A stretch of 64,000 nucleotides of DNA from Bacteroidia bacterium (GCA_044377005.1 JBILJV010000001.1:34999-98998), one strand, 5' to 3'; counted from the first letter of the stretch, positions 36,014 to 52,307 are shown. Numbers and translations: made by a program. The notes: a model not told the origin generated them from the sequence alone.

Positions 36014-36222
36014 AACTGCATCGACTATATTACCATTAGTTTGTTTTCAAATGAAAAGATTAGAAAGTTTGTGTTAAAATTACAAAGCTTTAATGTGTTT
36101 TTTAAATTAAAACAGAAGCATGTGCATATGAAGTTTGTAGGATTTGGGGATTTAAATGTTTGTCAACTAACAAAATAGTTAAAGGTAGTATTGAATGAGC
36201 TATATTAACAAAAAGATGGTGT

Positions 36223-37839: not shown

Positions 37840-38171
37840 ATTTGATTATTTTAAAATAAGTACTAGTTTGGCAAATGTAATTCTTTTTTAAATATATCAT
37901 TATAATGTATTTGTAAAAAAAGTTAAAAACCTATTAGATTATTTATTTTTCTCATAATAATTAACGAAATAATAAGTAAAAAATAATGAAGTTTTATGAA
38001 TTATTAAAAAAGTTGATAATGTAAATATAAATATTATTAGTATTGGGATGTTTGTAATTATTTAATATGTAGTGGATTAAATATTGTAGTAGTAGTGATG
38101 TAGTGTCTTTATTTGTTAATTCAATGTTAAAAAATTTAATTTGTTTTCGGATTTAATTAAAAATACATAAA

Positions 38172-40052
38172 ATGAAAAAAAATTACAAATTTAAAATGTC
38201 TAAAGTCAGTTTGATGTCTCAAATTGCTTTATTAACCCTATTATTTTCAAGCATTGGTTTACATGCTCAAAAATCTCCAATAGATTTTGAAACAGGAGGT
38301 AATGGTGCAACATGGACGTGGACAGTTTTTGAAAATAGCTCAAACCCAGCTATTGAAATCATTACAAATCCAGACCAGTCAGGTATTAATACTTCTTCTA
38401 AAGTTATGAAATTTACAGTTTTACAAGCTGGAAATCCTTGGGCAGGTTGTGAATCAAAACGTGGTTCAACAGATTTAGACACATTTTCTTGGAATTCAAA
38501 AAATAGAATCATAAAGATAATGGTTTGGAAGCCAATAATAAGTGATGTAGGGATAAAATTTGCTACAGATTCAGGATGGGCAGAAGTTGAAGTGAAGGTG
38601 GCTAATACCAAAATTAATGAATGGGAAGAGTTAACTTTTGATTTTACAGGTAAAATTAATCCACCATCACTAAAAGGTAATTTAAATCAAATTATTATTT
38701 TCCCAGATTTTCAAGCAAGAACTAGTGATAATATCTGTTACATAGACAATATTACATTTAATACTGGTACAGCATCTGAACCAACTACGGCTGCTCCAAC
38801 TCCTACACAAGCATCTGCAGATGTAATCTCAATGTTTAGTAATGCTTACACTAATAAATCTGTAAATTCATGGAGAACTGATTGGTCTAAAGCTACTCTT
38901 ACTGATATTCAAATAGCTGGAAATGATACCAAAAAATACACTTCTTTGGATTATGTAGGAATTGAAACTTTAGGAGCTAATTTGCTAGATGTTAGAAATA
39001 TGTTGTATTTTCATTTTGATGTATGGACTCCCAATGCTAATACAGTAAGTGTAAAATTAGTTGATGTTGGAGCTAATGGAACTTTTGGAGGAGGGGATGA
39101 TAAAGAACATCAAGTTACTTTAACACCTACAAAAAACGGTTGGAATAGTTTTGATGTGCCTATGTCTGACTTCACAGGATTAACCTCTAGAGAACATATT
39201 GCTCAGTTGATATTTAATTCTACACCATCAGGTCAAGGAACCTTATACATAGACAATATTTTCTATCACAAAACGCCGATTATCGACCCTAATACGCCAC
39301 AAGAAGCTGCTCCAACTCCAGTTTTTGTAGGAACAGATGTTATTTCTTTGTTTAGTAATTCATACACCAACAAAACGGTTAATACCTGGCGCACAGAATG
39401 GTCCGATAAATCTAATTTAACAGATTTACAAATTAAAGGAAATGATACAAAAAGATATACATCATTAAATTTTGTAGGTATTGAAACTCTTGATACTAAT
39501 GTAATTGATGCTTCTAAAATGGATAGATTTTATTTTAATGCATGGACGCCTAATTTAACTTCACTTAAAGTAAAATTAGTTGACTTTGGTGCTAATGGTG
39601 CTGTAGGTGGTGGTGATGATAAAGAACATGAACTAACATTGACTACTCCTACTTTAAATGCTTGGAATACTTATGACTTGCCTTTATCTAGTTTTACTGG
39701 TTTAACAACTAAATCACACATTGCTCAATACATATTAGTGGGAACTCCATCAGGTTCAGGTACTTTGTTTATTGACAATGTTTTATTTAGAAAAGAAGCA
39801 CTTTCTGTTTCTAGTACTACTTTAAATACTATCAGTGTTTATCCAAACCCAGCGACTGAACAAGTTACATTATCTTCAGTTACTACTATTACTTCAGTTG
39901 AATTGTTCAATAGCTTAGGTCAAAAAGTATTAAGCTTAAATTCTGATTCTAATATTGTAACAATCGATATTACTAATCTTAATAAAGGTGTTTATACTAT
40001 AAAAACAAATACTTATAATGGACAATCTGTTTCTAAAGTGATTGTAGAATAG
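38172..40052 (+). CDS. Secreted triple CBM-like-domain protein with T9SS CTD (putative beta-glucan-binding protein)
   Basis: Three ~170-aa homologous domains ending in IDNI(T/F)F-like strands; domains 2 and 3 form a 172-codon tandem repeat; C-terminal SVYPNPATEQVTL CTD. Confidence 0.7.
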   Translation: MKKNYKFKMSKVSLMSQIALLTLLFSSIGLHAQKSPIDFETGGNGATWTWTVFENSSNPAIEIITNPDQSGINTSSKVMKFTVLQAGNPWAGCESKRGSTDLDTFSWNSKNRIIKIMVWKPIISDVGIKFATDSGWAEVEVKVANTKINEWEELTFDFTGKINPPSLKGNLNQIIIFPDFQARTSDNICYIDNITFNTGTASEPTTAAPTPTQASADVISMFSNAYTNKSVNSWRTDWSKATLTDIQIAGNDTKKYTSLDYVGIETLGANLLDVRNMLYFHFDVWTPNANTVSVKLVDVGANGTFGGGDDKEHQVTLTPTKNGWNSFDVPMSDFTGLTSREHIAQLIFNSTPSGQGTLYIDNIFYHKTPIIDPNTPQEAAPTPVFVGTDVISLFSNSYTNKTVNTWRTEWSDKSNLTDLQIKGNDTKRYTSLNFVGIETLDTNVIDASKMDRFYFNAWTPNLTSLKVKLVDFGANGAVGGGDDKEHELTLTTPTLNAWNTYDLPLSSFTGLTTKSHIAQYILVGTPSGSGTLFIDNVLFRKEALSVSSTTLNTISVYPNPATEQVTLSSVTTITSVELFNSLGQKVLSLNSDSNIVTIDITNLNKGVYTIKTNTYNGQSVSKVIVE

Positions 40053-40169: not shown

Positions 40170-43100
40170 TTACTCTTTGTTATTGTTGCTTTGGAAATTG
40201 ATTAAGAATTCAAATAAATCCTGATGAGTCTCTAATTTTAATTTTTTCCTTAAACGGTATCTGCTTATTTCTACCCCTCTAACAGATATGCTAAATAGTT
40301 GGGCCATTTCTTTGCTCGATAAATTCATTCTTAAGTATGCACAAAGTTTTAATTCTTTGGAATTTAAATCAGGATATGCCTTTTTTAAATTATTTAAAAA
40401 ATCACTTTGTACATTTTTAACATGATCTGTAAATTTATCCCATTCCTCATCTAGTTTTTCATCTGATTTTATTTGACGTAATATTTTTCTAATTTCATTT
40501 GTCTCAACTTGGTCTTTGTTCTGAATAACTAAATTGTTTAAATGACTTGTTAACTTACCTAAAAAAGCTTTTTTCTGAAGCAAATTCATCGCAGTACTTG
40601 CCAAGTCTTCACTTTTGTGCTTTATCTCCGCTTGAAGATTGTCATTAGTCAATTGCATTATCGCTTTTTCATTCTTTTCAAGCTCAAGTTGATGTTTATA
40701 GTTGATTTGACGTTGATCTTCCTCAAATTTAAGTTTAGCCTCAAGCATCCTAATTTGTGCTTTTTTCTGTAGTTTTTTCTTTTGTAGTTTAAGCAATAAA
40801 TAAAACACAGATAATATGATTAATAGATAAAGAAAATAAGCCCAAATATTTCTATACCAAGGGGCTTTGATTTCAAAATTGTATGAGAATTGCTTAAACT
40901 CGTTTAATGGTCCATGTCTTGATTTTAAAATAAAAGTGTACTTACCTTCTTTGAGATTTGTGTATTCTTTTTCAGAAGTTGAACTCCAATTACTCCATTT
41001 TTTATCATGACCTTCCAGTAAGTAACTAAATTCAATGTTTGATTTATGCCTCAAAAATGAACTTGCAAATGAAAACCGGATTGAGTTTGATTTGTAAGGG
41101 ATTGATGTTATTAAATTGTTGTTTTTGAGGAGATTGTTGAATCCTCCATAAATAATTGAATCGCCACTTCCCAAGGTTTTTACTGAACTTATGTAAGTTT
41201 TATAAGGGAATATTTGCTTAGAATACTTATTATAATTGATTTTATAAAAGCCAATGTCTGATCCTATTATTGTGTTTTCGGAATCGTAGCAGTAAATATT
41301 TTCAAAACCACTTAGTACTTGATTAAATAGTTCAGGAATATATTTAACAACTGGTTGAGAATCTTTAAAGTCCACTATGCCTAACATTTTGTCTTGAACA
41401 AACCAAATATTGCCATTTAAGTCTTCTTTTAAATACCTTATTGGGATATTGCCCAATATGTTTTTATAAAGTATGGAAGGAATTAACTTATCTCTTTTTT
41501 GGTCTATTTCATAAATGCCTTTAATTGTAGCTATTACAATTTTGTTTTTTATTTTAAAAACATGATTATCTAATTCAGAAGGTAATCCATCTTTAGCAGC
41601 GTATTTTTTAATCCTGTTATCTGTTATGTTGATTTTATATAATCCATGATAAGGGTGTGATACCCAAATGGAATTATTTTCTACCTCCAAATAACGGCTT
41701 GATTCAATAAAGTTTCTGATAGAACCATCGTTTTTGAGTTCCTTATTCTCTTTGCGAAAAAGTTGAATGCCAAAATAATTTCCGCATACTATTTTAGGAG
41801 GAATACTAACGTTTATTGGTTTAAATGTCCAAAAGCCTAAAGATTTAAAAATAGGGCTTACTTTGTCGTTATCGACTTTCCATAATCCATCATCTCTACT
41901 CACAATTAGTTGGTTTTCATAAGTATTAACATTCCAAGTTAGGCCATTCATTATAATTTTGGGTTTCAATGAAAGTGAACCTAATTCGTTTTTTTGTTTA
42001 ATATCTATAGATTGTAATCCTGTAGACAATGCAAAATATAAATCTCCATTTAATCTAATAGCACCATGCCCACTGCCGTTGTTAAATGAGTTGGGATTTA
42101 TATGGTAAATGGAATTTCCCCAATCAATAAGTGCGATACTGTTATCCATTCCTATCCAAGTACATCCATCAAACCCACTGTAAAGGCAGCGCATTGTATT
42201 GCTTACTAATCCTTGTTTTGTAGAAATATTTCCCAGTATATTTCCTTTTTTGTCTATTTTGTAAAGTCCTGAATTATATGAACCTAATAAAAAATGATTG
42301 GCGTTAATGACCTCAATAGTTGTAAAGTGATTTTCTTTTATTAAGGCATTAATTTTAAATGGGAGTAACTGATTTTTGGTTAATAAGAATAACCCATTTC
42401 CTGTGGTACTCAATAAACTCGTATCGATTCCAAATGGCTTTATATCAGTGATTTGAAATCCATTAGGCAACAAACTTTGATTGATTAGGGATTCCCATCG
42501 GCCTTTGTTGTACAGCAGTATACCGCTTTTCTTGTCTTGAGCAATTAGTTTATTGTGGTGTTTTTTTAATGAAGTCCATGTTGTTTTCGGTTTAAAATAG
42601 GAGATACAGTTGTTCGAATATCTAAAAATAAACTGAGGTGTCATAAAAAAAACGTCTTGGTCAATTATTTCGATATTCCAGATATCGGCTAATGAACTAA
42701 CAAATGGTGGGAGTTGTTTTTTTAAAGATGTAAATATGAATTTTCCTGATTTGTCAGCTTTGAAATAGCCAAATTCGTCTTGTGCACCCACATATAATCG
42801 ACCATCATTGCTCATTGCAATAGATCTTACAATAGTTTTATTTGGAACAGGATATAATTCCCATTTTACACCATTGTATATCAAAAGGCCTTCGTTATTT
42901 GCAATAAACAATCTGCCCATATTATCCCTTTCAATATCCCAGTTTTGTGTGCCTGCAGAATATTCGGATTTTGAAAAAATAGAAACCTTTGCATTGTCAA
43001 TTTCCTCTTGTCCAAAGCAGTTGATAATGAAAAGAAGAAGATACAAGCCCAAAAATAACCCTTTTTTAGAGGTGCATTTTTCTTTGGTTTTGTTTCGGTA

Positions 43101-43187
43101 TTTTATTGATTTTCGGATGTTAATAATGCAAAAATAACCAAATTTTTCAGTTTGATGTAGTAAAGTAGTAGTTTTTATTGGTTGCAA
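40170..43187 (-). CDS. Transmembrane one-component regulator: periplasmic Reg_prop beta-propeller plus Y_Y_Y sensor, TM helix, coiled coil, LuxR-type HTH
   Basis: Reg_prop-like repeats (e.g. DGCTWIGMDNSIAL); Y_Y_Y block (FSYLLEGHDKKWSNW...YTFILKSR); TM IWAYFLYLLIILSVFYLLL; C-terminal HTH KLCAYLRMNLSSKEMAQLFSISVRGVEISRYRLRKKL; no HK or REC domain; true start uncertain (long pre-signal leader). Confidence 0.75.
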   Translation of the reverse strand: MQPIKTTTLLHQTEKFGYFCIINIRKSIKYRNKTKEKCTSKKGLFLGLYLLLFIINCFGQEEIDNAKVSIFSKSEYSAGTQNWDIERDNMGRLFIANNEGLLIYNGVKWELYPVPNKTIVRSIAMSNDGRLYVGAQDEFGYFKADKSGKFIFTSLKKQLPPFVSSLADIWNIEIIDQDVFFMTPQFIFRYSNNCISYFKPKTTWTSLKKHHNKLIAQDKKSGILLYNKGRWESLINQSLLPNGFQITDIKPFGIDTSLLSTTGNGLFLLTKNQLLPFKINALIKENHFTTIEVINANHFLLGSYNSGLYKIDKKGNILGNISTKQGLVSNTMRCLYSGFDGCTWIGMDNSIALIDWGNSIYHINPNSFNNGSGHGAIRLNGDLYFALSTGLQSIDIKQKNELGSLSLKPKIIMNGLTWNVNTYENQLIVSRDDGLWKVDNDKVSPIFKSLGFWTFKPINVSIPPKIVCGNYFGIQLFRKENKELKNDGSIRNFIESSRYLEVENNSIWVSHPYHGLYKINITDNRIKKYAAKDGLPSELDNHVFKIKNKIVIATIKGIYEIDQKRDKLIPSILYKNILGNIPIRYLKEDLNGNIWFVQDKMLGIVDFKDSQPVVKYIPELFNQVLSGFENIYCYDSENTIIGSDIGFYKINYNKYSKQIFPYKTYISSVKTLGSGDSIIYGGFNNLLKNNNLITSIPYKSNSIRFSFASSFLRHKSNIEFSYLLEGHDKKWSNWSSTSEKEYTNLKEGKYTFILKSRHGPLNEFKQFSYNFEIKAPWYRNIWAYFLYLLIILSVFYLLLKLQKKKLQKKAQIRMLEAKLKFEEDQRQINYKHQLELEKNEKAIMQLTNDNLQAEIKHKSEDLASTAMNLLQKKAFLGKLTSHLNNLVIQNKDQVETNEIRKILRQIKSDEKLDEEWDKFTDHVKNVQSDFLNNLKKAYPDLNSKELKLCAYLRMNLSSKEMAQLFSISVRGVEISRYRLRKKLKLETHQDLFEFLINFQSNNNKE

Positions 43188-43274: not shown

Positions 43275-46200
43275 ATGCCCAAAAAGAATATCGAAATGAT
43301 TAAAAAAATGCTAATCCAATTTTTTTTGTTATTAGCTCCATTGTTAGTATTTGCACAAAGTGAAAAAGTGGAAGTAATTAAGTCGGAAAATGGATTTAAA
43401 CTTTCAGTCAATGGAAAAGACCTGTTTATAAATGGAATGAATTGGGATTATTTTCCAGTGGGAACAAATTACAATTACAGTTTGTGGAATCAGTCGGATG
43501 ATTTGATAAAAGCTGCTTTGGACAATGAAATGTCCTATCTAAAAAATATGGGAGTTAATGCCATTCGACAATATTCGGGTGTCCCTGCCAAATGGGTAAC
43601 ATATATCTATAATAACTACGGAATTTACACCATGCTCAATCATTCTTTTGGTCGTTATGGATTAAATATCAATGGTAAATGGGAAGCCAATACAGACTAT
43701 TCTAATCCAGCAGTTAGGGAAGTTTTGCTAAAAGAAACTAAGGAAATGGTGTCTCAATATAAAGAAACGCCAGGAATTTTGTTGTTTTTGTTAGGAAATG
43801 AAAATAATTATGGTCTCTTTTGGAGAGGCGCTGAAACAGAAAGTATCCCATTTGCGGATAGAAAATCGACTAAAGATGCTTACTTTATGTATAAGCTTTT
43901 TAATGATGCTGTTAAAGAATTAAAAACAATTGACAAAAATCATCCAATAGCCATTTGTAATGGTGATTTATTGTTTTCTGACATTATTGCAAAAGAGTGT
44001 GCTGATGTTGATATTTTAGGAGTAAATTGCTATAGAGGTCTTACTTTTACTGACCTGTATGAGCGAGTAAAAAAGGAGTTAAATATCCCTATTCTTCTTA
44101 CTGAGTTTGGATCTGATGCTTACAATACTCGTTCAAATATTGAAGACCAAGAGTTTCAAGCACAAGTATTATTGAGTAATTGGAAGGAAATATACAGCAA
44201 TGCTGCTGGAATGGGAAAAAATAATAATAGTTTGGGTGGTTTTACTTTCCAATTCAGTGATGGATGGTGGAAAACAGGTCAAACAATCAATTTGGATGAA
44301 CACGATGTTACAGCTTCTTGGTCTAACGGTGGGTATGGTAACGATTATGTTCAGGGTGAAAATAATATGAATGAAGAGTGGTTTGGAATTTGTGCAAAAG
44401 GTAAAACAAATGAACGTGGTTTATATGAGTTATATCCAAGGGCGGCTTATTATGCGCTTCAGAATATACACAATTTCAACCCATATTTAAGTAATTCTAA
44501 TCTAATAAATACTTATTTTAATTCCATATCAATTTTAGATGCAGCCTTAAAGGCAAGAGGAGATAAATCTGTTTTGGAATCCAAAGACAAAGGGAAATTG
44601 TATTTAAGCAATTTACAAGCCAATTTTAACACCTATCAAACAGGAGGAAGTTTAATAACAACACCGTCCACTTCCAATCCCTTAAATTCAAATTCATATC
44701 CCAATGTTCAAGGCTTTGACCATATGCAATCTTTTAACTTTGGAATTACCGCAAGGCCTGCTCCTAATATGAAAGCAAATGTTCAATTTAATGTATTAGG
44801 GAATGTTGCTACTAATCCAATAGATGAAATATTCTATGAAAATAGAGGAAGACCAATAACCATTCAAACGCCATCTGGACCACAACAAATTAACTCAAAT
44901 AATAGAGTACAATTGTATAAAGCCAATTACAGTTGGGATGCTAAGGATTTTAAACTAACAGGATTTTATAGAACAGGTCATTACCATTGGGGTTATGAAG
45001 GTGACTTTTTTGGATTATATCCTGAAGCCAATTATGGTCCTAATATTGATATATACAACGGCAATGCACCTTTTGGTTTTGAAATAGAAGGTAAAAAAAA
45101 TATTAAAGGTTTAAAGCTGGCTTTTGGTCCTGAATTATGGTGGGGAGCCAATCCAGCTTTTTTGTTAAAATACAATCGAAAAATAGCAGGGTTAGATGTT
45201 ACAGGGATTTTTCATGAGGATATTACTCAAAGAAATAATCTACAAAGTTCATTTGCAGTTCCTATGCCTAAAACTAGAAGATTAACCGTAGCAATAGGTA
45301 AGAAAATGAATCATTTTACCTTCGATTTGGGAGGGATTTGGGGCGGACAACCACTCAATGGAAGAACATTTCAAATGGTTTATGAAAATGTAGTCTACGA
45401 AGATAAAATTCAAAGTACAGATAATTTTGGGGGTAAAGCAAAACTCACCTATTCAAAAGGAGCTTTTCGTTGGTATGGTCTTGCTTCATATATGGGTTTA
45501 GTAGCTAATGGAGGGGTAGACCAAACCAAAACATTTACCGGTTGGGTTCTTAAGGATATAGGAAGCGGAAATATGTATAATGCACTTACAGGTCTGACAT
45601 ACAATATTGGTAAAATTCAAATAGCACCCAATTTTTTATTTCAAAAACCCTTAGTGGGTCCCATTGGCCCTAATTATTTAGCACCCGCTCGCCCAAGAAA
45701 CATTTTAGACGATCCTTTTTCTGTGAGAGGAAATAGAGAAACAGTGGGTGGAGAAATGTTGATTACATATGATCCAACACCTGCAACTTGGATGTATGAG
45801 TGGGATAATGACAGAATGGAAGATGCCAAATTTGCTTTTAGTTCAGGATTTGTTTACAGACATTTACCCACGGTTCAAGATGCCTCTATAGGTATTTTAG
45901 GAAATGGTCGTACCACTTTTGTCTTTCCGGGTTCTGCACCCGCGCAGGATCTTTGGGAACTAAACGCTAGAGTTGTTTCTAAAATTAATCCCGAATTCGG
46001 AATTATTGGGAATTTGTATTTTGGAAATGGTCAAGCCAATGGAAACGATACTAGAACAATCAATAGATATGGAATGGATATTAGAACTATTTATAAAAAA
46101 ATGAAACTAATTACCATTGTTAAAATAGATGATTGGGGTCCATTTGACTATCACCGAGATTTTAACCAAACTTTCCCACTTCAATTGATAGGTGATTGGT

Positions 46201-46418
46201 CAATAGAAGTTGGAAAGCCTGATTGGTTTATGCTCCCAGGAACGAAACTTGGATTCAGAACAACATATAGGACTTTAAATAAATACTCCAACAGATATTC
46301 ACCAATTACAACTTTAAATAATTTAGGTCAATTTGTCCCTGACCCCAATGCACTTGGTTTTCCGAATGGTAACGAATGGGAGCTAAGAACCTACATTCAA
46401 ATCAATATCAATAATTAA
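43275..46418 (+). CDS. Fusion protein: clan GH-A-like glycosidase TIM barrel (NE and TEFG motifs) plus ~600-aa beta-rich porin-like C-terminal domain
   Basis: Signal peptide LLVFAQS; N-terminal domain with LGNENNYG (acid/base-like) and ILLTEFGSDAYN (nucleophile-like); C-terminal half rich in Gly/aromatic residues with alternating strands; start refined from 43182 to the ATG at 43275. Confidence 0.5.
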   Translation: MPKKNIEMIKKMLIQFFLLLAPLLVFAQSEKVEVIKSENGFKLSVNGKDLFINGMNWDYFPVGTNYNYSLWNQSDDLIKAALDNEMSYLKNMGVNAIRQYSGVPAKWVTYIYNNYGIYTMLNHSFGRYGLNINGKWEANTDYSNPAVREVLLKETKEMVSQYKETPGILLFLLGNENNYGLFWRGAETESIPFADRKSTKDAYFMYKLFNDAVKELKTIDKNHPIAICNGDLLFSDIIAKECADVDILGVNCYRGLTFTDLYERVKKELNIPILLTEFGSDAYNTRSNIEDQEFQAQVLLSNWKEIYSNAAGMGKNNNSLGGFTFQFSDGWWKTGQTINLDEHDVTASWSNGGYGNDYVQGENNMNEEWFGICAKGKTNERGLYELYPRAAYYALQNIHNFNPYLSNSNLINTYFNSISILDAALKARGDKSVLESKDKGKLYLSNLQANFNTYQTGGSLITTPSTSNPLNSNSYPNVQGFDHMQSFNFGITARPAPNMKANVQFNVLGNVATNPIDEIFYENRGRPITIQTPSGPQQINSNNRVQLYKANYSWDAKDFKLTGFYRTGHYHWGYEGDFFGLYPEANYGPNIDIYNGNAPFGFEIEGKKNIKGLKLAFGPELWWGANPAFLLKYNRKIAGLDVTGIFHEDITQRNNLQSSFAVPMPKTRRLTVAIGKKMNHFTFDLGGIWGGQPLNGRTFQMVYENVVYEDKIQSTDNFGGKAKLTYSKGAFRWYGLASYMGLVANGGVDQTKTFTGWVLKDIGSGNMYNALTGLTYNIGKIQIAPNFLFQKPLVGPIGPNYLAPARPRNILDDPFSVRGNRETVGGEMLITYDPTPATWMYEWDNDRMEDAKFAFSSGFVYRHLPTVQDASIGILGNGRTTFVFPGSAPAQDLWELNARVVSKINPEFGIIGNLYFGNGQANGNDTRTINRYGMDIRTIYKKMKLITIVKIDDWGPFDYHRDFNQTFPLQLIGDWSIEVGKPDWFMLPGTKLGFRTTYRTLNKYSNRYSPITTLNNLGQFVPDPNALGFPNGNEWELRTYIQININN

Positions 46419-46451: not shown

Positions 46452-47858
46452 ATGAAAATGATAAATAAGTTAAGTGTTCAAATAGGTTTTATCGCCCTAT
46501 TTTTAATGGTTCAATTAGGGTGTAAACGCGAATTATCAGAGGATGCTGTATTGCCTCAATTTAGCAAAAATCCATATGTTTTTACCGATAACTTTATAGG
46601 ATTAGGTTCTGATTTTTATTTCCCTTTTGCAGATGCTAAGCCAGATGTTTTTTCAGTTGACTTAAAAGAGGGTTTCGAAAGCAATGCTTCAGTTAGAATT
46701 GATGTGCCCAATGAGACTGATCCAGGAGGAGCTTATGCTGGGGCAATTTTTAGAATAGATGGTGCTGGTAGAAATTTAAGTAATTATGATGCAATAACTT
46801 TTTATGTTAAAGCCTCTACTGGAACAAAATTAGGTGATGTTGGATTTGGGATTGATTACATTCAAGACAAAAATAAAGTGTCTATTCAAAATGTAAATGT
46901 TGGAACCAATTGGACCAAAGTTATTATTCCTATTCCCGATCCTACTCAATTGGTTAATGAAAGAGGTGTTTTTTGGTTTGCAGCTGGTACACAAGAGACT
47001 AATGGGGCAGGATATGTACTTTGGTTTGATGAAATTAAATTTGAGAAATTAGGGACTGTGGGAAAGCCAACTTCAAGGATTTTAAATGGCGAAGTTAGCA
47101 CGGTAAAGTCCTTTGTTGGAGCCTCAATAACGGTTACAGGTTTGAATCATATTTTTAATCTAACAAATGGTCAAGATGTTATTGTGAATTCTACTTCTGC
47201 ATATTATAACTTTTCAAGTTCAAATACTTCTGTGGCATCAGTTAATGACTCAGGAATTGTGAAAATATTAGCTATAGGTACAGCAGAAATAACGGCTAGA
47301 GTCAATGGGATATTAGCGAAAGGTAAGTTGATTATTGAGTCAAAAGGTAATTTACCTGGCGCACCTATCCCAACTAGGTCAGCAATCGATGTTAAATCTA
47401 TTTTTAGTGATGCTTATGTCAATGCAACTGAAAGTAATTTTACACCAGGTTTTGGCGGCTCTACTACAGTTTTTGACCAATTGACAACCAGTAGCGGTAA
47501 GATAATACAATATAATAATAATAATTATACAGGAATAATCTTTGGGAATACAGTCGATGCATCTTCTCTTGGTTTTTTACATATTGATGCATACGTAGAA
47601 AATGCATCATCTGTAATTGGAATTCAAATTAGAGATATTGGGGCAAATAAAACAATTGAGACTGACGTGTTTACAGGGAATCCAATAGGAGATGATAAGG
47701 ATAAAAGAATGAATTTGTCTGGATTTGAAGCAGGAGTATGGAAGTCTTTTGATATTCCTTTAAATGCAGGCATTCTGAATCAAAAAAATAATTTAGGTGC
47801 AATTATTTTAACCGGAGGTCCAAATTTTATGATAGACAATATCTATTTTTATAAATAA
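46452..47858 (+). CDS. Surface lipoprotein with CBM-like domain, Big_2 Ig-like domain and CBM-like domain (SGBP-like)
   Basis: Lipobox VQLGC; central Big_2 signature (SVASVNDSGIVKILAIGTAEITARV); C-terminal domain homologous to the repeats of the 38172 protein (AIDVKSIFSDAYVN...IDNIYFY). Confidence 0.65.
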   Translation: MKMINKLSVQIGFIALFLMVQLGCKRELSEDAVLPQFSKNPYVFTDNFIGLGSDFYFPFADAKPDVFSVDLKEGFESNASVRIDVPNETDPGGAYAGAIFRIDGAGRNLSNYDAITFYVKASTGTKLGDVGFGIDYIQDKNKVSIQNVNVGTNWTKVIIPIPDPTQLVNERGVFWFAAGTQETNGAGYVLWFDEIKFEKLGTVGKPTSRILNGEVSTVKSFVGASITVTGLNHIFNLTNGQDVIVNSTSAYYNFSSSNTSVASVNDSGIVKILAIGTAEITARVNGILAKGKLIIESKGNLPGAPIPTRSAIDVKSIFSDAYVNATESNFTPGFGGSTTVFDQLTTSSGKIIQYNNNNYTGIIFGNTVDASSLGFLHIDAYVENASSVIGIQIRDIGANKTIETDVFTGNPIGDDKDKRMNLSGFEAGVWKSFDIPLNAGILNQKNNLGAIILTGGPNFMIDNIYFYK

Positions 47859-47865
47859 AGGCAAT

Positions 47866-48708
47866 TTGAAGAGAATTTTAAATAAACAATTAATGAATAA
47901 ATCGAATAAATTAACACTATTGACAATTTTAGCAATTTCTATGGGAGGATGTAAGGTAGAACCCATTCAGAACTTACCGGAAAAAAAATATGAATTGGTT
48001 TGGAGTGATGAGTTTGTAGGTGATTCTGGCGTTAATCCTAATGCTTTAAATTGGACTTACGATATTGGCACTGGACAAAATGGTTGGGGAAATAATGAAC
48101 TTCAATCCTATACCAACAATCCCCAAAATGTATCTTTGGATGGTTCTGGGAATTTGGTTATTTCTGCTTTGAAAAGTACTACAGTTAACTACACTTCGGC
48201 AAGAATAAAAACAGAAGGTCTTTTTGCTCATCAGTTTGGAAGAGTTGAAGCACGTATAAAAACACCAACAGGTTCAGGAATTTGGCCTGCATTTTGGATG
48301 TTAGGAGCAGATTTTAAGGATGTTGGCTGGCCTAAGTGTGGTGAAATTGATATTATGGAACAAAAAGGCAAATTTTCAAACATAACTTATGGTTCAATTC
48401 ACGGACCAGGATATGCTGGTGGTCAAGCTATTACTACGCCATACGGATTAAAAGATAATAGGTTTGATGCTGATTTTAATGTTTACGCGGTTGAATGGGG
48501 CCAAAATTATATTGATTTTTTTGTCAATAATTATTTTTACAAAAGAGTAACCCCCAACGATGTTAAGGGTGAATGGGTATTTAATAAACCTTTTTTTATT
48601 ATCCTGAATATTGCTGTTGGTGGAAATTTTGTTGGTCCTCCCAATATCAATACCCCTTTCCCAAGTTATATGTATGTTGATTATGTTAGAGTTTACAAAG
48701 AAATATAA
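47866..48708 (+). CDS. GH16 laminarinase-like lipoprotein
   Basis: Lipobox MGGC; LVWSDEF; catalytic EIDIME; 280 aa single catalytic domain. Confidence 0.82.
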   Translation: MKRILNKQLMNKSNKLTLLTILAISMGGCKVEPIQNLPEKKYELVWSDEFVGDSGVNPNALNWTYDIGTGQNGWGNNELQSYTNNPQNVSLDGSGNLVISALKSTTVNYTSARIKTEGLFAHQFGRVEARIKTPTGSGIWPAFWMLGADFKDVGWPKCGEIDIMEQKGKFSNITYGSIHGPGYAGGQAITTPYGLKDNRFDADFNVYAVEWGQNYIDFFVNNYFYKRVTPNDVKGEWVFNKPFFIILNIAVGGNFVGPPNINTPFPSYMYVDYVRVYKEI

Positions 48709-48854: not shown

Positions 48855-51800
48855 ATGTCAGGTCAAAAACAAAATAAAAAAGCTACTTTGGTAGAGATAA
48901 AAAGATTGAAAATAGAAGGAGAAAACTTCTTTTGTATTTCAAATTATGATGAAATGCGTCCCTTTTTTATGAGTGTGGTTAGCGATTCGCACCATTGGAT
49001 GTTTATATCTAGCAATGGGGGAATTTCTGCTGGTCGCAAGAATGCCGAATATGCTTTGTTCCCCTATTATACTGCGGATAAAATTACGGAATCCTATGAT
49101 ATAACAGGCTCTAAATCTATTTTTCAAATTATTCAAAATGAAAAAATTCATGTTTGGGAACCCTTTTCAGAAAGGAATAATAGCTTGTTCAACGTTTCTA
49201 GAAATTTGTATAAAAATGCAATTGGGAATAAAATTATTTTCGAAGAAATAAATCACACTTTTGAACTTACATTCAGGTACGAATGGAACTCAAGTGATCA
49301 ATACGGTTTTGTTCGTAAATCTTCTCTAGCAAACAATGGCAATCAAGCCTTAACCGTTGCTATATTAGATGGAATACAAAATATTATGCCTGATGGTGTC
49401 GGTGCTGATTTGCAAAACTCAACGAGTATTTTGGTAGATGCTTATAAACGCAATGAACTTGAGATAGAATCAGGTATGGGTATCTATGCACTCAGTGCAA
49501 TAATAGTTGACAAGGCTGAACCAAGTGAAGCTCTAAAAGCAAATATTGCTTGGTCTATAGGTTTTGATAAACCCAAATTCTTGCTTTCTTCCCTTCAACT
49601 TAATGCCTTCAGAAACGGAGAGGATGTTGTTCAAGAAGAGGATATTAAGGCAGAAAAAGGGGCTTATTTTATTAATCAAAAAATAACCTTAGCCAGTGGC
49701 GAAAAGAAATCTTGGTTAATTGTAGCTGATGTTAACCAAAGTCAAGCAAATGTAGTCGAACTGACCAATGAAATTATTTCAAATAATGAACTAAAAAAGC
49801 AAATTGAAAATGATATAGAATTAGGCTCTAAGCGCTTAAAGGAACTGAATGCTTCCTCTGATGGAATTCAATTGTCAGATGATGTTTACAGAGATACTCG
49901 ACATTTTTCTAATACTCTTTTTAATATAATGAGAGGGGGTATTTTTGATTTTAACTATCAAATTGAAAAAAAAGACCTCGTCAGTTATCTTGAAAATGCC
50001 AATAAAGATGTTTATGAAATTCACAAGGACTTGTTGCATAGCTTGGATGAAGTTTTTAACGTTTTTCAATTGCAAGAAATATACAGCACAATTAATGACA
50101 ATAATTTTAAACGACTTTGTATAGAGTATTTGCCACTTAAGTTTAGCCGAAGACATGGAGACCCAAGTAGACCATGGAATAAATTTTCTATCAATACACG
50201 TAATGCGGATGATCATTCTAAGGTGTTGGATTATGAGGGGAATTGGAGAGATATTTTTCAGAATTGGGAAGCTTTGTCCATCTCTTATCCTGCATTTACC
50301 AAAGGGATGATTCATAAGTTTTTGAATGCAACAACATTCGAAGGCTATAATCCTTATAGGGTTACAAAGAGTGGATTTGATTGGGAAACCGTAGAGCCGG
50401 ATAATCCTTGGTCGTATATCGGTTATTGGGGTGATCATCAAATTGTTTATTTGCTCAAATTGTTGGAAATAAATGAGAAATACTATCCAGGCCAACTGAG
50501 TAGTCAATTCAGTGAAAACCTATTTGTGTATGCCAATGTTCCTTATAAAATTAAAAATTATCAGGCGATTTTAAAAAATGCGAAAGACACTATTCAATTT
50601 GATAAAAAGTTAGATGAAGAAATTAGAGAAAAACGAGTTTTAATTGGTTCAGATGCTGCATTGCTTTTTGCGCAAAATGATAAAATTTACAATGTCAATT
50701 TTATTGAAAAAATATTGGCCACAATTTTATCTAAACTTTCAAATTTTATTCCCGAAGGTGGTATTTGGATGAATACCCAAAGACCTGAATGGAACGATGC
50801 TAATAATGCTTTGGTTGGAAATGGAGTTTCTATGGTTACATTATATTACCTCAGAAGGTTCCTTGAATTCTTCGAAAAACTAATTGAACCAATAGATGAA
50901 GAGCGCGTAGAATTGTCGAATGAGTTAATCATTTTCTTTAAAAAAATTCATGCTACATTCGATGACAACTTAGCTTTGTTAGATTCAGGGATAAATGACA
51001 GTCAACGAAAAGCAATTCTTGATAGCTTAGGACAAGCAGGAAGCGATTACCGTGAACATATTTATAAACATGCTTTTTGGGGCGAAAAAAGAACTATATC
51101 ATACCGAAGACTTAAAAGCTTTGTTAAAGTAAGTCTTCAGTTTATTGAACATACCATTAAGGCTAATAAGCGTCATGATAATATGTATCATTCATACAAT
51201 TTAATGACACTGAATAGCAAAAACGAAATTTCAATCAACTATTTAAGTGAAATGCTTGAAGGTCAAGTTGCCGTTTTAAGCTCCGGATATTTGTCTCCTG
51301 AAAGTGCCCTTAAATTATTGGATAGTATGAAAAGTAGTGCCCTTTTTAGAGAAGATCAACAAAGCTATTTACTCTATCCTAATAAGCATCTTCCTAAGTT
51401 TTTAGATAAAAATAGAATTCCTATTGAATTAATCAAACAATCGCATCTTCTTTCACTTATGTTTAATGATGGAAATAAATCAATTATAGAGCAAGATTTA
51501 AAAGGGGAATTTCGATTCAATGGGAATTTTAAAAATTCAAATGACTTGAGTAATGCTATTGATTTATTAAGCCATTCTAAATATGCATCATTTCTTAAAA
51601 GTGAAAAGAAACAACTCTTAGAAATTTTCGAATCTGTATTTAATCACAAGTCATTTACTGGTCGCTCAGGCACTTTTTATGGATATGAAGGTTTAGGTTC
51701 TATTTATTGGCACATGGTTTCTAAACTGCAATTAGCAGTCCAAGAAATGTGTATTCAAGCAATAGAGTTACATGAAAGTACTGAACTTGTTGCAGGCTTG

Positions 51801-52307
51801 TTGAAGCATTATTACGAAATAAATGAAGGTGTTGGTGTGCATAAATCACCCACCATTTATGGGGCATTCCCAACCGATCCATACTCGCATACGCCAAGTA
51901 ACAAAGGAGCACAACAGCCTGGAATGACTGGTCAAGTAAAAGAGGATATTCTGAGTCGATTTGGTGAATTAGGTGTTTTTGTCTCGAAAGGTTGTTTGTT
52001 TTTTAACCCTTGCTTGTTGAGAAAAAATGAATTTATATCTCAAAATCGACAGTTTCATTATGTAACTCTTGACATGGAACACAAATCATTAATGCCTGAA
52101 ATTGGTTCCTTGTGTTTTACCTATTGCCAAATTCCTATTGTATATAGATTGTCAAATGATAATTATCTTGAAATTGAAAAAAGTGACGGCACTGTTTTAA
52201 GGAATAATTCATTGTATTTAAATGAAGAATTAAGTCAACAAATATTTAAAAGAACGGGTGCTATATCTATAATTACAGTTTATATCAATGAATCTATTTT
52301 GAAATAA
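48855..52307 (+). CDS. Large cytoplasmic protein, candidate glycoside phosphorylase/hydrolase (GH94-clan, e.g. GH149/GH161-like)
   Basis: 1150 aa with no signal peptide, embedded in a glycoside-hydrolase operon next to an MFS importer; family assignment is inferential and no motif was verified. Confidence 0.35.
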   Translation: MSGQKQNKKATLVEIKRLKIEGENFFCISNYDEMRPFFMSVVSDSHHWMFISSNGGISAGRKNAEYALFPYYTADKITESYDITGSKSIFQIIQNEKIHVWEPFSERNNSLFNVSRNLYKNAIGNKIIFEEINHTFELTFRYEWNSSDQYGFVRKSSLANNGNQALTVAILDGIQNIMPDGVGADLQNSTSILVDAYKRNELEIESGMGIYALSAIIVDKAEPSEALKANIAWSIGFDKPKFLLSSLQLNAFRNGEDVVQEEDIKAEKGAYFINQKITLASGEKKSWLIVADVNQSQANVVELTNEIISNNELKKQIENDIELGSKRLKELNASSDGIQLSDDVYRDTRHFSNTLFNIMRGGIFDFNYQIEKKDLVSYLENANKDVYEIHKDLLHSLDEVFNVFQLQEIYSTINDNNFKRLCIEYLPLKFSRRHGDPSRPWNKFSINTRNADDHSKVLDYEGNWRDIFQNWEALSISYPAFTKGMIHKFLNATTFEGYNPYRVTKSGFDWETVEPDNPWSYIGYWGDHQIVYLLKLLEINEKYYPGQLSSQFSENLFVYANVPYKIKNYQAILKNAKDTIQFDKKLDEEIREKRVLIGSDAALLFAQNDKIYNVNFIEKILATILSKLSNFIPEGGIWMNTQRPEWNDANNALVGNGVSMVTLYYLRRFLEFFEKLIEPIDEERVELSNELIIFFKKIHATFDDNLALLDSGINDSQRKAILDSLGQAGSDYREHIYKHAFWGEKRTISYRRLKSFVKVSLQFIEHTIKANKRHDNMYHSYNLMTLNSKNEISINYLSEMLEGQVAVLSSGYLSPESALKLLDSMKSSALFREDQQSYLLYPNKHLPKFLDKNRIPIELIKQSHLLSLMFNDGNKSIIEQDLKGEFRFNGNFKNSNDLSNAIDLLSHSKYASFLKSEKKQLLEIFESVFNHKSFTGRSGTFYGYEGLGSIYWHMVSKLQLAVQEMCIQAIELHESTELVAGLLKHYYEINEGVGVHKSPTIYGAFPTDPYSHTPSNKGAQQPGMTGQVKEDILSRFGELGVFVSKGCLFFNPCLLRKNEFISQNRQFHYVTLDMEHKSLMPEIGSLCFTYCQIPIVYRLSNDNYLEIEKSDGTVLRNNSLYLNEELSQQIFKRTGAISIITVYINESILK

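Follow-up and report, generated by a model that had tools for sequence, protein, structure and literature searches.

The locus and its conserved gene order

The window, a stretch of 64,000 nucleotides from Bacteroidia bacterium (GCA_044377005.1), holds at positions 43275-46418 (+) an ORF of 1047 aa with zero internal stops. Its product is a secreted protein with an SPI-type signal peptide in which the translation shows no lipobox Cys. The gene is real: homologues of this protein form more than 5000 clusters at 90% identity, the best 120 of which are full-length and 73-96% identical to it. The protein joins an N-terminal glycosidase domain to a predicted C-terminal outer-membrane β-barrel (Table 1), and we refer to it as the fusion. 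Its database name is merely "GH2 glycosidase." We found no paper describing a glycosidase-barrel architecture, which appears to be undescribed, as a first, sequence-only reading of this DNA had supposed.

Table 1. Features of the locus, with positions counted from the first nucleotide of the window
Feature	Position	Strand	Basis
T9SS-secreted protein	34130-36013	-	Por_Secre_tail
T9SS-secreted protein, CBM4_9 + GH16	36223-37839	-	Por_Secre_tail, GH16, CBM_4_9 matches
T9SS-secreted protein, CBM11-like repeats	38172-40052	+	Por_Secre_tail, CBM_11 matches
BguR-type one-component regulator, divergent from fusion gene	40170..43187	-	Pfam Y_Y_Y + Reg_prop; LuxR-type HTH at residues 932-997
Fusion gene, 1047 aa	43275-46418	+	Translation
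Signal peptide, residues 1-27, SPI-type, cleavage ..LLVFA/QSE	43275..43355	+	Translation; N-terminal helix in AF2 model
Clan GH-A (β/α)8 glycosidase domain, residues ~30-400	43362..44474	+	Pfam, PDB phmmer, Foldseek
N175-E176, predicted catalytic acid/base, NE motif after strand β4	43797..43802	+	Alignment to GH158
E277, predicted catalytic nucleophile, TEFG after strand β7	44103..44105	+	Alignment to TEFG of GH158(Pro)
Linker with α-helices (408-416, 420-438), residues 401-447	44475..44615	+	DSSP on AF2 models
Predicted outer-membrane β-barrel, residues 448-1047; proposed laminari-oligosaccharide channel	44616..46418	+	28 DSSP strands
468-aa lipoprotein, lipobox ..QLGC, Ig-like (Big_2) segment + C-terminal CBM11-like module	46452..47858	+	N-terminus; weak Big_2 match, Ig-like repeats
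GH16 lipoprotein, predicted endo-β-1,3(4)-glucanase	47866..48708	+	Pfam GH16 E 2e-20; lipobox GGC
GH149 β-1,3-glucan phosphorylase	48855..52307	+	NCBIfam NF058639, 1757 bits vs. cut-off 1150
GH17 lipoprotein, predicted periplasmic β-1,3-glucanase	52312..53595	+	Pfam GH17; lipobox IAC
GH30 lipoprotein, predicted β-1,6-glucosidase removing laminarin branches	53596..55104	+	Pfam GH30 + GH30C E 6.5e-74; lipobox VQC
MFS_2 (GPH-type) inner-membrane sugar importer	55126..56688	+	Pfam MFS_2, E 4e-60

The divergent regulator combines a β-propeller and Y_Y_Y sensor with a C-terminal LuxR-type HTH beside a β-glucan locus, gave no HisKA, HATPase, or REC matches, and agrees with the architecture that defines BguR (bioRxiv 10.64898/2026.01.10.698779). 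Directly behind the fusion gene lies the 468-aa lipoprotein, which over residues 303-468 shares homology (E 1e-18) with the CBM11-like repeats encoded at 38172-40052; it is probably a glycan-binding partner and stands where SusD or an SGBP would be expected. The sequence-only reading had named the GH16, GH17, GH30, phosphorylase, and MFS genes, all of which we recovered (the phosphorylase as GH149), and had overlooked this lipoprotein. The GH149 enzyme, which has no signal peptide, is presumed to be cytoplasmic, and the three T9SS-secreted proteins (34130..40052) are probably laminarin-binding or laminarin-cleaving accessories. No SusC-like, SusD-like, or other TonB-dependent receptor gene was found in the entire 64-kb window, as the same reading had held for the operon.

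Conservation of the fusion in related genomes, proposed at that stage as a check, extends to two phyla: at least 593 Bacteroidota species encode it, and Gammaproteobacteria have a second subfamily. The gene is nearly always first in a β-1,3-glucan operon with the order barrel, CBM lipoprotein, GH16, GH149, GH17, GH30, and MFS. Of 83 loci sampled from Bacteroidota genomes and metagenome contigs, 71-72 kept the order fusion, lipoprotein, GH16, with a lipoprotein of the 468-aa type directly 3′ of the fusion in 71 and GH16 in 72. GH149, GH17, GH30, and MFS genes accompanied the fusion in 39-54 loci (about half to two-thirds) and a BguR-type regulator adjoined it in 38. Only 2 of the 83 had a TBDT-like ORF within 10 kb; the remaining 81 share the absence of SusC/SusD. 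Gammaproteobacterial fused members were found in GH16/GH17/GH3/GH149/MFS loci, also with no TBDT nearby. Relatives that consist of the barrel only adjoin SBP_bac_5 ABC importers (4/4 loci), LacI (3/4), and GH16 (3/4), and at one locus the barrel gene is directly first in the ABC operon. Their place beside ABC sugar importers indicates that the barrel has a role of its own.

Synteny and size point to FORMB_24670, called "GH2" in PUL 2 of Formosa sp. Hel1_33_131, as a probable orthologue. This 117-kDa protein is positive in SignalP, negative in LipoP, and has a positive BOMP score; laminarin induces it 196-fold, and its abundance is highest in the membrane fraction, where 1.19 %riBAQ is 2.6 times the value of either laminarin TBDR, with a membrane vs. 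extracellular split resembling that of TBDRs (PMC6246565 Table S3). Two SusCD-containing laminarin PULs of the strain were induced together with its locus (PMC6246565 Table S3), and the fusion need therefore not be the sole import route. The sequence-only reading had held that a coregulated SusC/SusD pair elsewhere would count against it, and this is partly the case in one organism, Formosa.

These data also bear on polysaccharide export, in which a periplasmic glycosidase and an outer-membrane porin would secrete β-glucan in the manner of BcsZ/BcsC, PelA/PelB, or AlgL/AlgE. We judge this extremely improbable: the operon has no synthase or glycosyltransferase, its partners are all catabolic (GH16, GH17, GH30, GH149, and the MFS importer), its regulator is of the β-glucan utilization type, and FORMB_24670 is induced by laminarin as food.

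The glycosidase domain

As first read from the sequence, the N-terminal domain is a TIM-barrel glycosidase of clan GH-A, and its catalytic residues are intact. GH2_C, a TIM-barrel family with a cut-off of 21 bits, is the sole Pfam match of the fusion (residues 79-287, 26.4 bits, E 4.6e-6), and strands and helices alternate in a TIM fold over residues 96-324 of the AF2 model. The best Foldseek matches were GH158 (9p26 and 6pal, E ~1e-13) and GH157 (9g4n), ranking above GH2 glucuronidases; the Foldseek probability was 1.0 against the TIM barrels of all three families, and identity in the structural alignments to GH158 and GH157 was 13-15%. A PDB phmmer search likewise returned a GH158 enzyme first (9oro_A, E 1.8e-5), in an alignment of ~150 residues that pairs the NE and TEFG motifs. 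The GH158 family profile gave E 1.4e-4 and did not improve on this single-sequence match.

The motifs singled out by the sequence-only reading lie at residues 173-180 (LGNENNYG) and 276-279 (TEFG). N175-E176 and E277 do not vary among 53 Bacteroidota sequences, and the NE and E residues remain at least 90% conserved once gammaproteobacterial sequences are included. In BuGH158, N136/E137 are essential and the nucleophile is E220 (PMC7157763). Across 75 other species, the median identity of the glycosidase domain to the window sequence is 67%, whereas the 468-aa lipoprotein reaches 39% and GH16 53%. We predict a GH158/GH157-like retaining endo-β-1,3-glucanase; the activity is suggested by the nearest folds together with the β-1,3-glucan operon context.

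Membership in GH2 was considered and rejected. GH2 enzymes carry a sugar-binding jelly-roll and an Ig-like sandwich N-terminal to the TIM barrel. In the fusion only the TIM domain matches, weakly (26 bits), and only ~25 residues precede the TIM barrel; Glyco_hydro_2_N and Glyco_hydro_2 gave no Pfam match in the fusion, and LacZ-type NCBIfam models scored 20-30 bits against cut-offs of 999-1284. The model shows no Ig-like sandwich after the TIM barrel: loops and helices occupy residues 328-438, and the membrane barrel follows.

The predicted outer-membrane barrel and the position of the enzyme

The linker is the least conserved stretch of the mature protein (column conservation 0.57 vs. 0.79 in the GH domain and 0.74 in the barrel). 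Beyond it, the C-terminal half is predicted to be a very large transmembrane outer-membrane β-barrel with 24-28 membrane-spanning strands. AF2 modeled this half as 28 antiparallel strands (pLDDT 73.9, pTM 0.70) and the full-length protein with pLDDT 64 and pTM 0.44; barrel closure, strand number, loop packing, and enzyme position are read from the DSSP strings and fold-search scores of these moderate-confidence models. The composition is 10.5% Gly and 14% aromatic with zero Cys, and hydrophobic and polar residues alternate in most predicted strands. Connections in the model measure 2, 2, 3, 6, 2, 3, 2, 2, 2, 20, 2, 2, and 12 aa from even to odd strands and 19, 18, 4, 34, 7, 18, 5, 6, 26, 31, 26, 7, 17, and 30 aa from odd to even strands. 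This alternation of short and long connections, the even number of strands (28), and the signal peptide are general traits of outer-membrane barrels. Column conservation reaches 0.88-0.99 in the long loops vs. 0.70 in the strands.

A C-terminal Phe is the classical outer-membrane insertion signal. It ends 114 of 119 fused gammaproteobacterial homologues and 71 of 83 proteins of >500 aa from a barrel-only search, whose output contains fused as well as barrel-only members. The fusion and all 120 of its Bacteroidota relatives have non-aromatic ends (QININN, QINIGK, or similar), a counterpoint to reading these members as channels.

The top structural matches of the barrel were all membrane barrels, but no solved barrel, TBDTs included, gave a TM-score above 0.44. 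The barrel has no Pfam match; at E up to 10, the search returned no CBM, Ig, or other soluble domain, and Plug, TonB_dep_Rec, and CarboxypepD_reg had no match in the fusion in Pfam or NCBIfam (the barrel again at E up to 10). It is very unlikely that the C-terminal half is instead a soluble β-sandwich/CBM array and the barrel prediction an artefact. Moderate pLDDT values (64 full-length, 74 C-terminal), the occurrence of hydrophobic alternation in β-sandwiches too, and the Bacteroidota C-termini could be explained in that way, but the exclusive matching to membrane barrels, the empty soluble-domain search, the terminal Phe of proteobacterial members, and the membrane peak and TBDR-like fraction split of FORMB_24670 argue against it, and no tandem-sandwich repeat periodicity is visible in the strand pattern of the C-terminal model. 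The AF2 model and fold matches thus favor a membrane barrel, as originally read, over soluble domains; the label "porin-like" cannot be kept in the family sense, given ~24-28 strands, the low TM-scores, and the empty Pfam result.

We also consider it unlikely that the barrel is a mere membrane anchor or scaffold, with oligosaccharides entering by SusCD or TonB-dependent transporters encoded elsewhere. The coinduced SusCD PULs of Formosa and the 2 of 83 loci with a TBDT-like ORF fit such an arrangement, and the absence of SusCD covers 64 kb of genome, so that a distant pair is possible. However, enzyme-free barrels are conserved beside ABC sugar importers, in TBDT-free β-glucan loci, the gammaproteobacterial fused members likewise have none nearby, and a 600-residue barrel with loops >90% conserved far exceeds the needs of an anchor. 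Bacteroidota anchor their enzymes by lipid.

By strand and loop parity, both barrel termini lie on the short-turn side, which places the attachment point of the enzyme on the normally periplasmic face. The hydrolase-barrel fusion of the sequence-only reading is upheld; the cell-surface cleavage suggested with it is less likely by standard barrel topology. In large barrels such as LptD, ushers, BamA, TBDTs, and BcsC, the N-terminal domain is periplasmic or serves as a plug. Surface exposure would require linker segment 408-438 to run inside the barrel lumen, in the manner of type Va autotransporters. The protein would then be a fused "utilisome" in which the barrel is the import channel, the glucanase cuts laminarin at the channel mouth, and the products are captured at once. 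We regard this as possible but doubtful. It has in its favor the order of signal peptide, globular enzyme, α-helix, and β-barrel, which is that of autotransporters such as EstA; one fusion variant with a polysaccharide-binding CBM_4_9 N-terminal to the enzyme; and the chief length difference between fused and barrel-only proteins, which is found in loop 650-667 on the long-loop side (18 vs. 7 aa, 11 residues shorter in the barrel-only relatives). In gut Bacteroides, the known GH158 enzymes are predicted to be lipoproteins at the cell surface (PMC7157763). Tight coupling would moreover be most useful outside the cell, where products diffuse away, and this would explain the stability of the fusion across two phyla. 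Against it, beyond the position of the termini, the known barrels of autotransporters are built from 12-16 strands, and the fusion matches no autotransporter domain in Pfam. Within the operon, moreover, conservation is highest in the GH domain (67%) and much lower in the presumed surface lipoproteins (39% for the 468-aa protein and 53% for GH16). Surface display in Bacteroidota normally relies on lipoprotein export or T9SS, and both routes already serve other proteins of the locus.

Proposed mechanism and comparison with known systems

The reading that we prefer, with roughly even confidence, is a TonB-independent laminari-oligosaccharide channel with an endo-glucanase tethered at its periplasmic face and passive transport. 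It builds on results for the domain folds, the conserved catalytic residues, the conserved synteny, and the lack of a TBDT, to which we add channel function, substrate, mode of transport, and enzyme placement as inferred parts. The long, conserved, aromatic- and acid-rich loops would fold into the lumen and make the channel specific for β-1,3-gluco-oligosaccharides. Transport would be passive because the barrel has no plug domain or TonB box, and the ~45-residue helical linker would join the glucanase to the first barrel strand, on the periplasmic face by standard topology. At the surface, laminarin, an algal β-glucan, would be captured and nicked by the CBM lipoprotein together with the GH16 enzymes, both T9SS-secreted and lipoprotein, and the chains would pass the barrel by diffusion or threading. 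The tethered glucanase would cut the chains as they emerge, acting as a cleavage ratchet that blocks back-diffusion and so maintains an inward gradient. Periplasmic fragments would be trimmed by GH17 and GH30, short oligosaccharides imported via the MFS carrier, and phosphorolysis by GH149 would follow in the cytoplasm. A periplasmic endo-glucanase would be partly redundant with GH17, a counterpoint to this placement. The barrel appears to replace the usual SusC/SusD import machinery and, if the proposal is true, would be its counterpart in canonical laminarin PULs.

SusC/SusD systems and "utilisomes" are the TonB-dependent glycan importers of Bacteroidota. The fusion stands at their position within the locus, right after a BguR-type regulator and before a glycan-binding lipoprotein and GH16, and is presumed also to move laminarin fragments across the outer membrane. 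It differs in having no plug, TonB box, or CarboxypepD_reg, TonB_dep_Rec, or SusD match, in a barrel of >22 strands, and in the attached enzyme. In the laminarin clusters of Formosa (FORMB_24670) and Muricauda lutaonensis, a "GH2" gene is likewise first in the series "GH2," 49-kDa protein, GH16, GH149, GH17, GH30, and MFS; the papers on these genes describe the product as hypothetical or as a GH2 β-glycosidase, with no mention of a barrel or of a role in transport.

The enzyme half resembles GH158 (BuGH158 6PAL; GH158(Pro) 9ORO/9P26) and GH157 (LaGH157 9G4N) in its clan GH-A TIM barrel with aligned NE and E residues, and these enzymes are also encoded in β-1,3-glucan utilization loci. Identity to GH158 is, however, 13-15%, with a sequence match over only ~150 residues, and GH158 enzymes are lipoproteins, whereas the fusion has an SPI signal peptide. 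In BuGH158, a C-terminal eight-stranded Ig-like domain packs on the TIM barrel and shapes the cleft (PMC7157763); the fusion has the helical linker and the 600-residue barrel in its place.

Among barrels, a classical sugar porin (LamB, ScrY, OprB, ChiP/OprD) was rejected, since the strand number is not 16-18 and there is no LamB, OprB, or OprD Pfam membership. LamB/malEFGK, ScrY, ChiP, and CymA have 14-18 strands, are in many cases trimers, carry no fused enzyme, and show no detectable sequence similarity to the fusion. Type Va autotransporters (EstA) share the order of signal peptide, globular enzyme, α-helical linker, and C-terminal β-barrel, but this is the only likeness: PF03797 is not matched, the fusion barrel is about twice the size, and their own 12-strand barrel is filled by the linker rather than forming a channel, whereas the fusion barrel also exists alone. 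Large single-chain barrels with a partner are known in LptD/LptE and MtrB/MtrA (26 strands) and in PapC ushers (24). These have no sequence relation to the fusion, and their cargo is lipopolysaccharide, electrons, or pilus subunits; that a partner protein might play a structural role for the fusion barrel, as in LptD/LptE or MtrB/MtrA, is pure conjecture.

The MFS-GH17 fusion (FbGH17B), found in related loci such as L001, differs in being an inner-membrane α-helical carrier with a C-terminal enzyme of another family. It nevertheless offers a parallel within the same pathway: a transport protein carrying a covalently attached β-1,3-glucan hydrolase, for which a coupling of uptake to cleavage is proposed and in which, as we place the glucanase here, the enzyme lies where the substrate leaves the transporter.

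Enzyme domain of the fusion

Translation of the fusion gene gave a genuine open reading frame of 1047 uninterrupted codons, with an SPI-type signal peptide (cleavage between LLVFA and QSE) and no lipobox cysteine. In the N-terminal half, Pfam matched the GH2_C TIM-barrel domain alone and weakly (residues 79–287, 26 bits), and the LacZ-type NCBIfam models, whose cut-offs lie near 1000, scored 20–30 bits. Neither the Pfam nor the NCBIfam scan found the additional domains by which GH2 is defined, so the “GH2” label given in databases and papers is unjustified, and we rejected a GH2 identity on these scores. The N-terminal stretch EKVEVIKS was likewise rejected as a TonB box: it makes up the first β-strand on the way into the TIM barrel and was matched by alignment to LacZ residues 303–334.

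Among solved structures, the best sequence match was a GH158 enzyme (9oro_A, E = 1.8e-5), with whose acid/base and nucleophile residues the NE and TEFG motifs of the fusion align. A Foldseek search with the AlphaFold model placed GH158 (9p26, 9oro, and 6pal; E about 1e-13) and GH157 (9g4n) at the top, above GH2 glucuronidases. Both are endo-β-1,3-glucanase families. In 53 Bacteroidota homologs, residues N175, E176, and E277 never vary, and they remain at least 90% conserved once gammaproteobacterial homologs are added; their equivalents in BuGH158 (N136, E137, and E220) are essential (PMC7157763). The fold matches and these three residues bear out the clan GH-A glycosidase proposed in the sequence-only reading, whose two quoted motifs we located at residues 173–180 (LGNENNYG) and 276–279 (TEFG). 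We call the domain GH158-like, within clan GH-A, because its identity to GH158 is just 13–15%, the family profile matched GH158 no better than the single sequence did, and it lacks the Ig-like domain that GH158 has. It very probably acts as a retaining β-1,3-glucanase.

Predicted barrel and its conserved loops

The C-terminal half gave no match to Pfam (24,736 models) or NCBIfam (June 2026) even at E values up to 10, nor to PDB sequences, among which single-sequence and family-profile searches found the GH domain only. Its 600 residues are 10.5% glycine and 14% aromatic, with no cysteine. AlphaFold2 was run on the full-length fusion with a shallow alignment (pLDDT 64, pTM 0.44) and on residues 400–1047 with an alignment that included the ∼30%-identical gammaproteobacterial subfamily (pLDDT 74, pTM 0.70). 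Strand connections in the barrel model alternate strictly between short and long, with even-to-odd connections of 2, 2, 3, 6, 2, 3, 2, 2, 2, 20, 2, 2, and 12 residues and odd-to-even connections of 19, 18, 4, 34, 7, 18, 5, 6, 26, 31, 26, 7, 17, and 30 residues. The model in this way shows the layout classically seen in outer-membrane barrels, in which turns on the periplasmic side are short and loops on the outside are long; both termini of the barrel lie on the short-turn side. We give the strand count as 24–28, because the hairpins at 528–539 and 698–711 might be parts of loops. Hydrophobic and polar positions alternate in most of the strands, which supports a barrel independently of the model; a soluble β-sandwich is an unlikely reading of the C-terminal half.

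A terminal phenylalanine is the proteobacterial signal for outer-membrane insertion. It is present in 114 of 119 fused gammaproteobacterial homologs (P0271–P0389) and in 71 of the 83 proteins longer than 500 aa recovered with a barrel-only query (P0180), some of them barrel-only and some fused. The Bacteroidota members (P0001–P0120) end in QININN or QINIGK without a terminal aromatic residue, which may reflect a lineage-specific difference in the C-terminal barrel-insertion signal. Of the porin-like outer-membrane barrel originally proposed, the barrel stands as a prediction on the model, the strand alternation, and the gammaproteobacterial phenylalanine, but membership of the classical porins does not. 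Kinship of the barrel with the DUF6029 protein encoded in the window was rejected (hhalign probability 0.2%).

External loops are usually the most variable parts of outer-membrane proteins; the fusion shows the opposite. Over 76 sequences (the window’s and those of 75 other species), the long loops, which presumably face the exterior, are the most conserved stretches of the protein, with column conservation of 0.88–0.99 compared with 0.70 for the barrel strands and 0.79 for the enzyme domain. The working site is most likely made by these loops folded into the lumen; they total ∼180 residues and have a high content of Trp, Tyr, His, Asp, and Glu.

Features of the fusion, its surroundings, and related loci (positions are those of the window unless a locus is named)
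Feature	Position	Description
Fusion gene	43275–46418 (+)	1047 codons
Loop 510–527	44802–44855	column conservation within 0.88–0.99
Loop 566–599	44970–45071	column conservation within 0.88–0.99
Loop 621–627	45135–45155	column conservation within 0.88–0.99
Loop 741–766	45495–45572	column conservation within 0.88–0.99
Loop 952–968	46128–46178	column conservation within 0.88–0.99
C-terminal end of fusion	46395–46415	no terminal aromatic
Lipoprotein	46452–47858	468 aa
GH16		downstream operon gene; Pfam/NCBIfam
GH149 β-1,3-glucan phosphorylase		downstream operon gene; NCBIfam equivalog, 1757 bits vs. cut-off 1150
GH17		downstream operon gene; Pfam/NCBIfam
GH30		downstream operon gene; Pfam/NCBIfam
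MFS_2 carrier	55126–56688	520 aa; without GH17 domain
Regulator		upstream of fusion, divergent; β-propeller, Y_Y_Y sensor, LuxR-type HTH (Pfam/NCBIfam)
Three T9SS-secreted proteins		farther upstream of regulator; one CBM4_9-GH16, one of CBM11-like repeats
Protein with tandem CBM11-like modules	38172–40052	one of these three T9SS-secreted proteins
GH1 β-glucosidase	29706–31076 (−)	E = 7e-130; 12 kb upstream of locus
564-aa ORF	15429–17123 (+)	no match in Pfam or NCBIfam
DUF6029 protein	9704–11368 (−)	PF19494, E = 7e-118; 554 aa; directly upstream of MFS transporter
MFS sugar-type transporter	8479–9699 (−)	
∼235-aa lipoprotein	L084 13172–13888; L085 13181–13894; L086 13177–13869	gammaproteobacterial fusion loci
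Free-standing 566-aa protein	L085 13993–15693	weak GH2_C match; two genes past fusion
Barrel-only genes	L087–L090 10001–11791	575–598 aa; own signal peptide
MFS–GH17 fusion	L001 21737–23135	782 aa; also in other loci

Operon, distribution, and relatives

The genes 3′ of the fusion are spaced by 0–146 bases. Pfam and NCBIfam matches agree with the GH16, GH17, GH30, phosphorylase (GH149), and MFS carrier genes named in the sequence-only reading, but its list missed the lipoprotein gene that the table places after the fusion. The domain layout of the upstream regulator is the architecture recently named BguR, a one-component β-glucan regulator, and no kinase or receiver domain was matched in it. 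SusC and SusD, said to be absent from the operon, are encoded nowhere in the 64-kb window, nor is any TonB-dependent receptor. The C-terminal 165 residues of the 468-aa lipoprotein are homologous to the two CBM11-like modules that stand in tandem in the T9SS-secreted protein encoded upstream (E = 1e-18), and judged by this homology, one binding module appears to be used in both lipid-anchored and secreted form. The GH1 β-glucosidase could complete the breakdown of imported β-gluco-oligosaccharides; GH1 occurs also in part of the gammaproteobacterial fusion loci.

More than 5000 clusters at 90% identity match the fusion, and the best 120 are all full length (73–96% identity). Conservation in related genomes had been left to be checked: when a single genome of each species was scanned, the fusion turned up in at least 593 species at 60–82% identity, including Chitinophagaceae, Saprospiraceae, Flavobacterium, Chryseobacterium, Algoriphagus, Bacteroidales, and Balneolales, and there is a second, gammaproteobacterial subfamily with an identical layout of enzyme and barrel. 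Across 83 loci (80 species-representative genomes and three metagenome contigs), gene order around the fusion is nearly fixed. The CBM lipoprotein lies directly 3′ of it in 71 loci; GH16 (72), GH149 (54), GH17 (52), GH30 (48), and MFS (39) lie after or near it, and a BguR-like regulator is near it in 38. A TBDT-like ORF occurs within 10 kb in only two of the 83. Median identity to the window is 67% for the GH domain, 62% for the barrel, 61% for GH30, 59% for GH149, 57% for GH17, 53% for GH16, and 39% for the 468-aa lipoprotein. In some loci, the MFS carrier and a GH17 domain form a single protein, as described for Formosa FbGH17B.

Gammaproteobacterial fusion loci carry GH16, GH17, GH3 or GH1, GH30, GH149, and MFS, with LysR, LacI, or GntR regulators and no TBDT nearby. 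A conserved ∼235-aa lipoprotein always follows the fusion; it had no match in Pfam, bears no relation in size to the CBM lipoprotein of Bacteroidota (468 aa), and may partner the barrel structurally, as LptE does LptD. The free-standing 566-aa protein of one such locus may represent the enzyme domain in unfused form. There are two architectural variants (P0125, 1351 aa, and P0256, 1218 aa): one with two tandem GH-A domains ahead of the barrel, and one with CBM_4_9, GH-A, and the barrel.

The third group consists of the barrel alone. In four of four loci examined, its gene adjoins an SBP_bac_5-type ABC importer, and in one of them, it directly heads the importer operon, a layout like that of lamB or chiP with their importers; LacI is present in three of the four and a GH16 laminarinase in three. 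The barrel therefore has its own function in β-glucan uptake loci. An anchor-only role for the barrel is unlikely, and so is one in polysaccharide export. Partners differ between the groups, with SBP_bac_5 ABC importers beside barrel-only genes and MFS plus periplasmic GH17, GH30, or GH3 beside fused ones. A type I secretion system (OEP, ABC, and HlyD) is encoded in three of the four barrel-only loci, in two of them near a very large GH16.

Proposed working, published data, and comparison with known systems

The fusion appears to be a component of outer-membrane glycan uptake. We are fairly confident that laminari-oligosaccharides cross the outer membrane passively through its barrel, a channel specific to them; the barrel and two lipoproteins, the CBM-carrying one and GH16, would make up the surface module of a SusCD-independent β-1,3-glucan utilization system. 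The tethered glucanase would cut chains in the periplasm as they emerge, acting as ratchet and sink. We favor a periplasmic enzyme because by parity its attachment falls on the periplasmic side, because other large barrels carry their N-terminal domains in the periplasm, and because conservation is much higher in the GH domain than in the lipoproteins presumed to lie at the surface. The sequence-only reading had instead suggested that the fusion could couple cleavage at the cell surface to translocation. The order of enzyme, helix, and barrel is that of autotransporters, CBM_4_9 precedes the enzyme in one variant, and barrel-only proteins differ chiefly by a shorter loop at 650–667, on the long-loop side; even so, we regard surface exposure as rather doubtful. 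The periplasmic-enzyme ratchet, taken as a whole, we put at even chances. An outer-membrane channel with a tethered glucanase would echo the MFS–GH17 fusion in the inner membrane of the same pathway.

Published data cover similar loci. The laminarin cluster of Muricauda lutaonensis comprises LuxR, “GH2,” GH16, GH149, GH17A, GH30, MFS, and GH17B (PMC13188888), and PUL 2 of Formosa sp. Hel1_33_131 comprises FORMB_24670, FORMB_24680 (49 kDa), GH16, a PKD protein, GH149, GH17, GH30, MFS, and GH17 (PMC6246565). From gene order, size, and annotation rather than sequence, FORMB_24670 is a probable ortholog of the fusion. It was annotated as “GH2 family” or hypothetical, with a mass of 117 kDa, a signal peptide by SignalP, a negative LipoP result, and a positive BOMP result (PMC6246565). 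Its level in the membrane fraction was 196-fold higher on laminarin than on glucose and 2.6 times that of either laminarin-induced TonB-dependent receptor; %riBAQ peaked in the membrane (1.19), with 0.67 extracellular and 0.18 soluble, and the protein was detected in bloom metaproteomes (PMC6246565). By the table of that paper, it is the most abundant laminarin-induced membrane protein among the Formosa laminarin PUL proteins, and its membrane/extracellular split resembles that of TBDRs, not lipoproteins. The gene has, then, already been seen and quantified, but as a “GH2” or hypothetical protein; a barrel or transport role is mentioned in neither paper. The “porin” of the Formosa paper was rejected as a counterpart, being an unrelated DUF1597 protein. 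Formosa co-induces two SusCD laminarin PULs (PMC6246565), and the fusion is therefore not the sole outer-membrane route in that organism.

Full-text literature searches on fusions between a glycosidase and an outer-membrane barrel, on laminarin porins, and on laminarin uptake without TonB gave no description of the architecture, in keeping with the initial impression that it had not been characterized. Laminarin is among the sea’s largest carbon fluxes, and marine Bacteroidota, by turning it over, contribute substantially to the carbon cycle of the ocean. Polysaccharide utilization in Bacteroidota is defined, and searched for bioinformatically, through SusC/SusD pairs. The SusCD-less locus type usually goes under the name of a mere “CAZyme cluster” with a “GH2,” although at least 593 species have it. 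Should the C-terminal domain be an import channel, pipelines for PUL prediction overlook an entire route of uptake, expression proxies based on SusC/D under-count laminarin use, the “GH2” annotations at these loci are wrong, and a new barrel family, with an outer-membrane enzyme–transporter fusion, is open to structural and mechanistic study. Only tentatively do we propose a new class of outer-membrane glycan translocon, a ∼28-strand barrel without TonB or SusD in which the attached endo-glucanase would drive net uptake as a cleavage ratchet. It is possible, though less likely than not, that such a translocon replaces SusCD in hundreds of Bacteroidota species and TBDTs in some Gammaproteobacteria for laminarin. 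By the tests of membership, the fusion falls outside the TBDTs, the classical porins, the autotransporters, and GH2; in its proposed working, the system would be akin to a sugar porin and to a SusCD importer.
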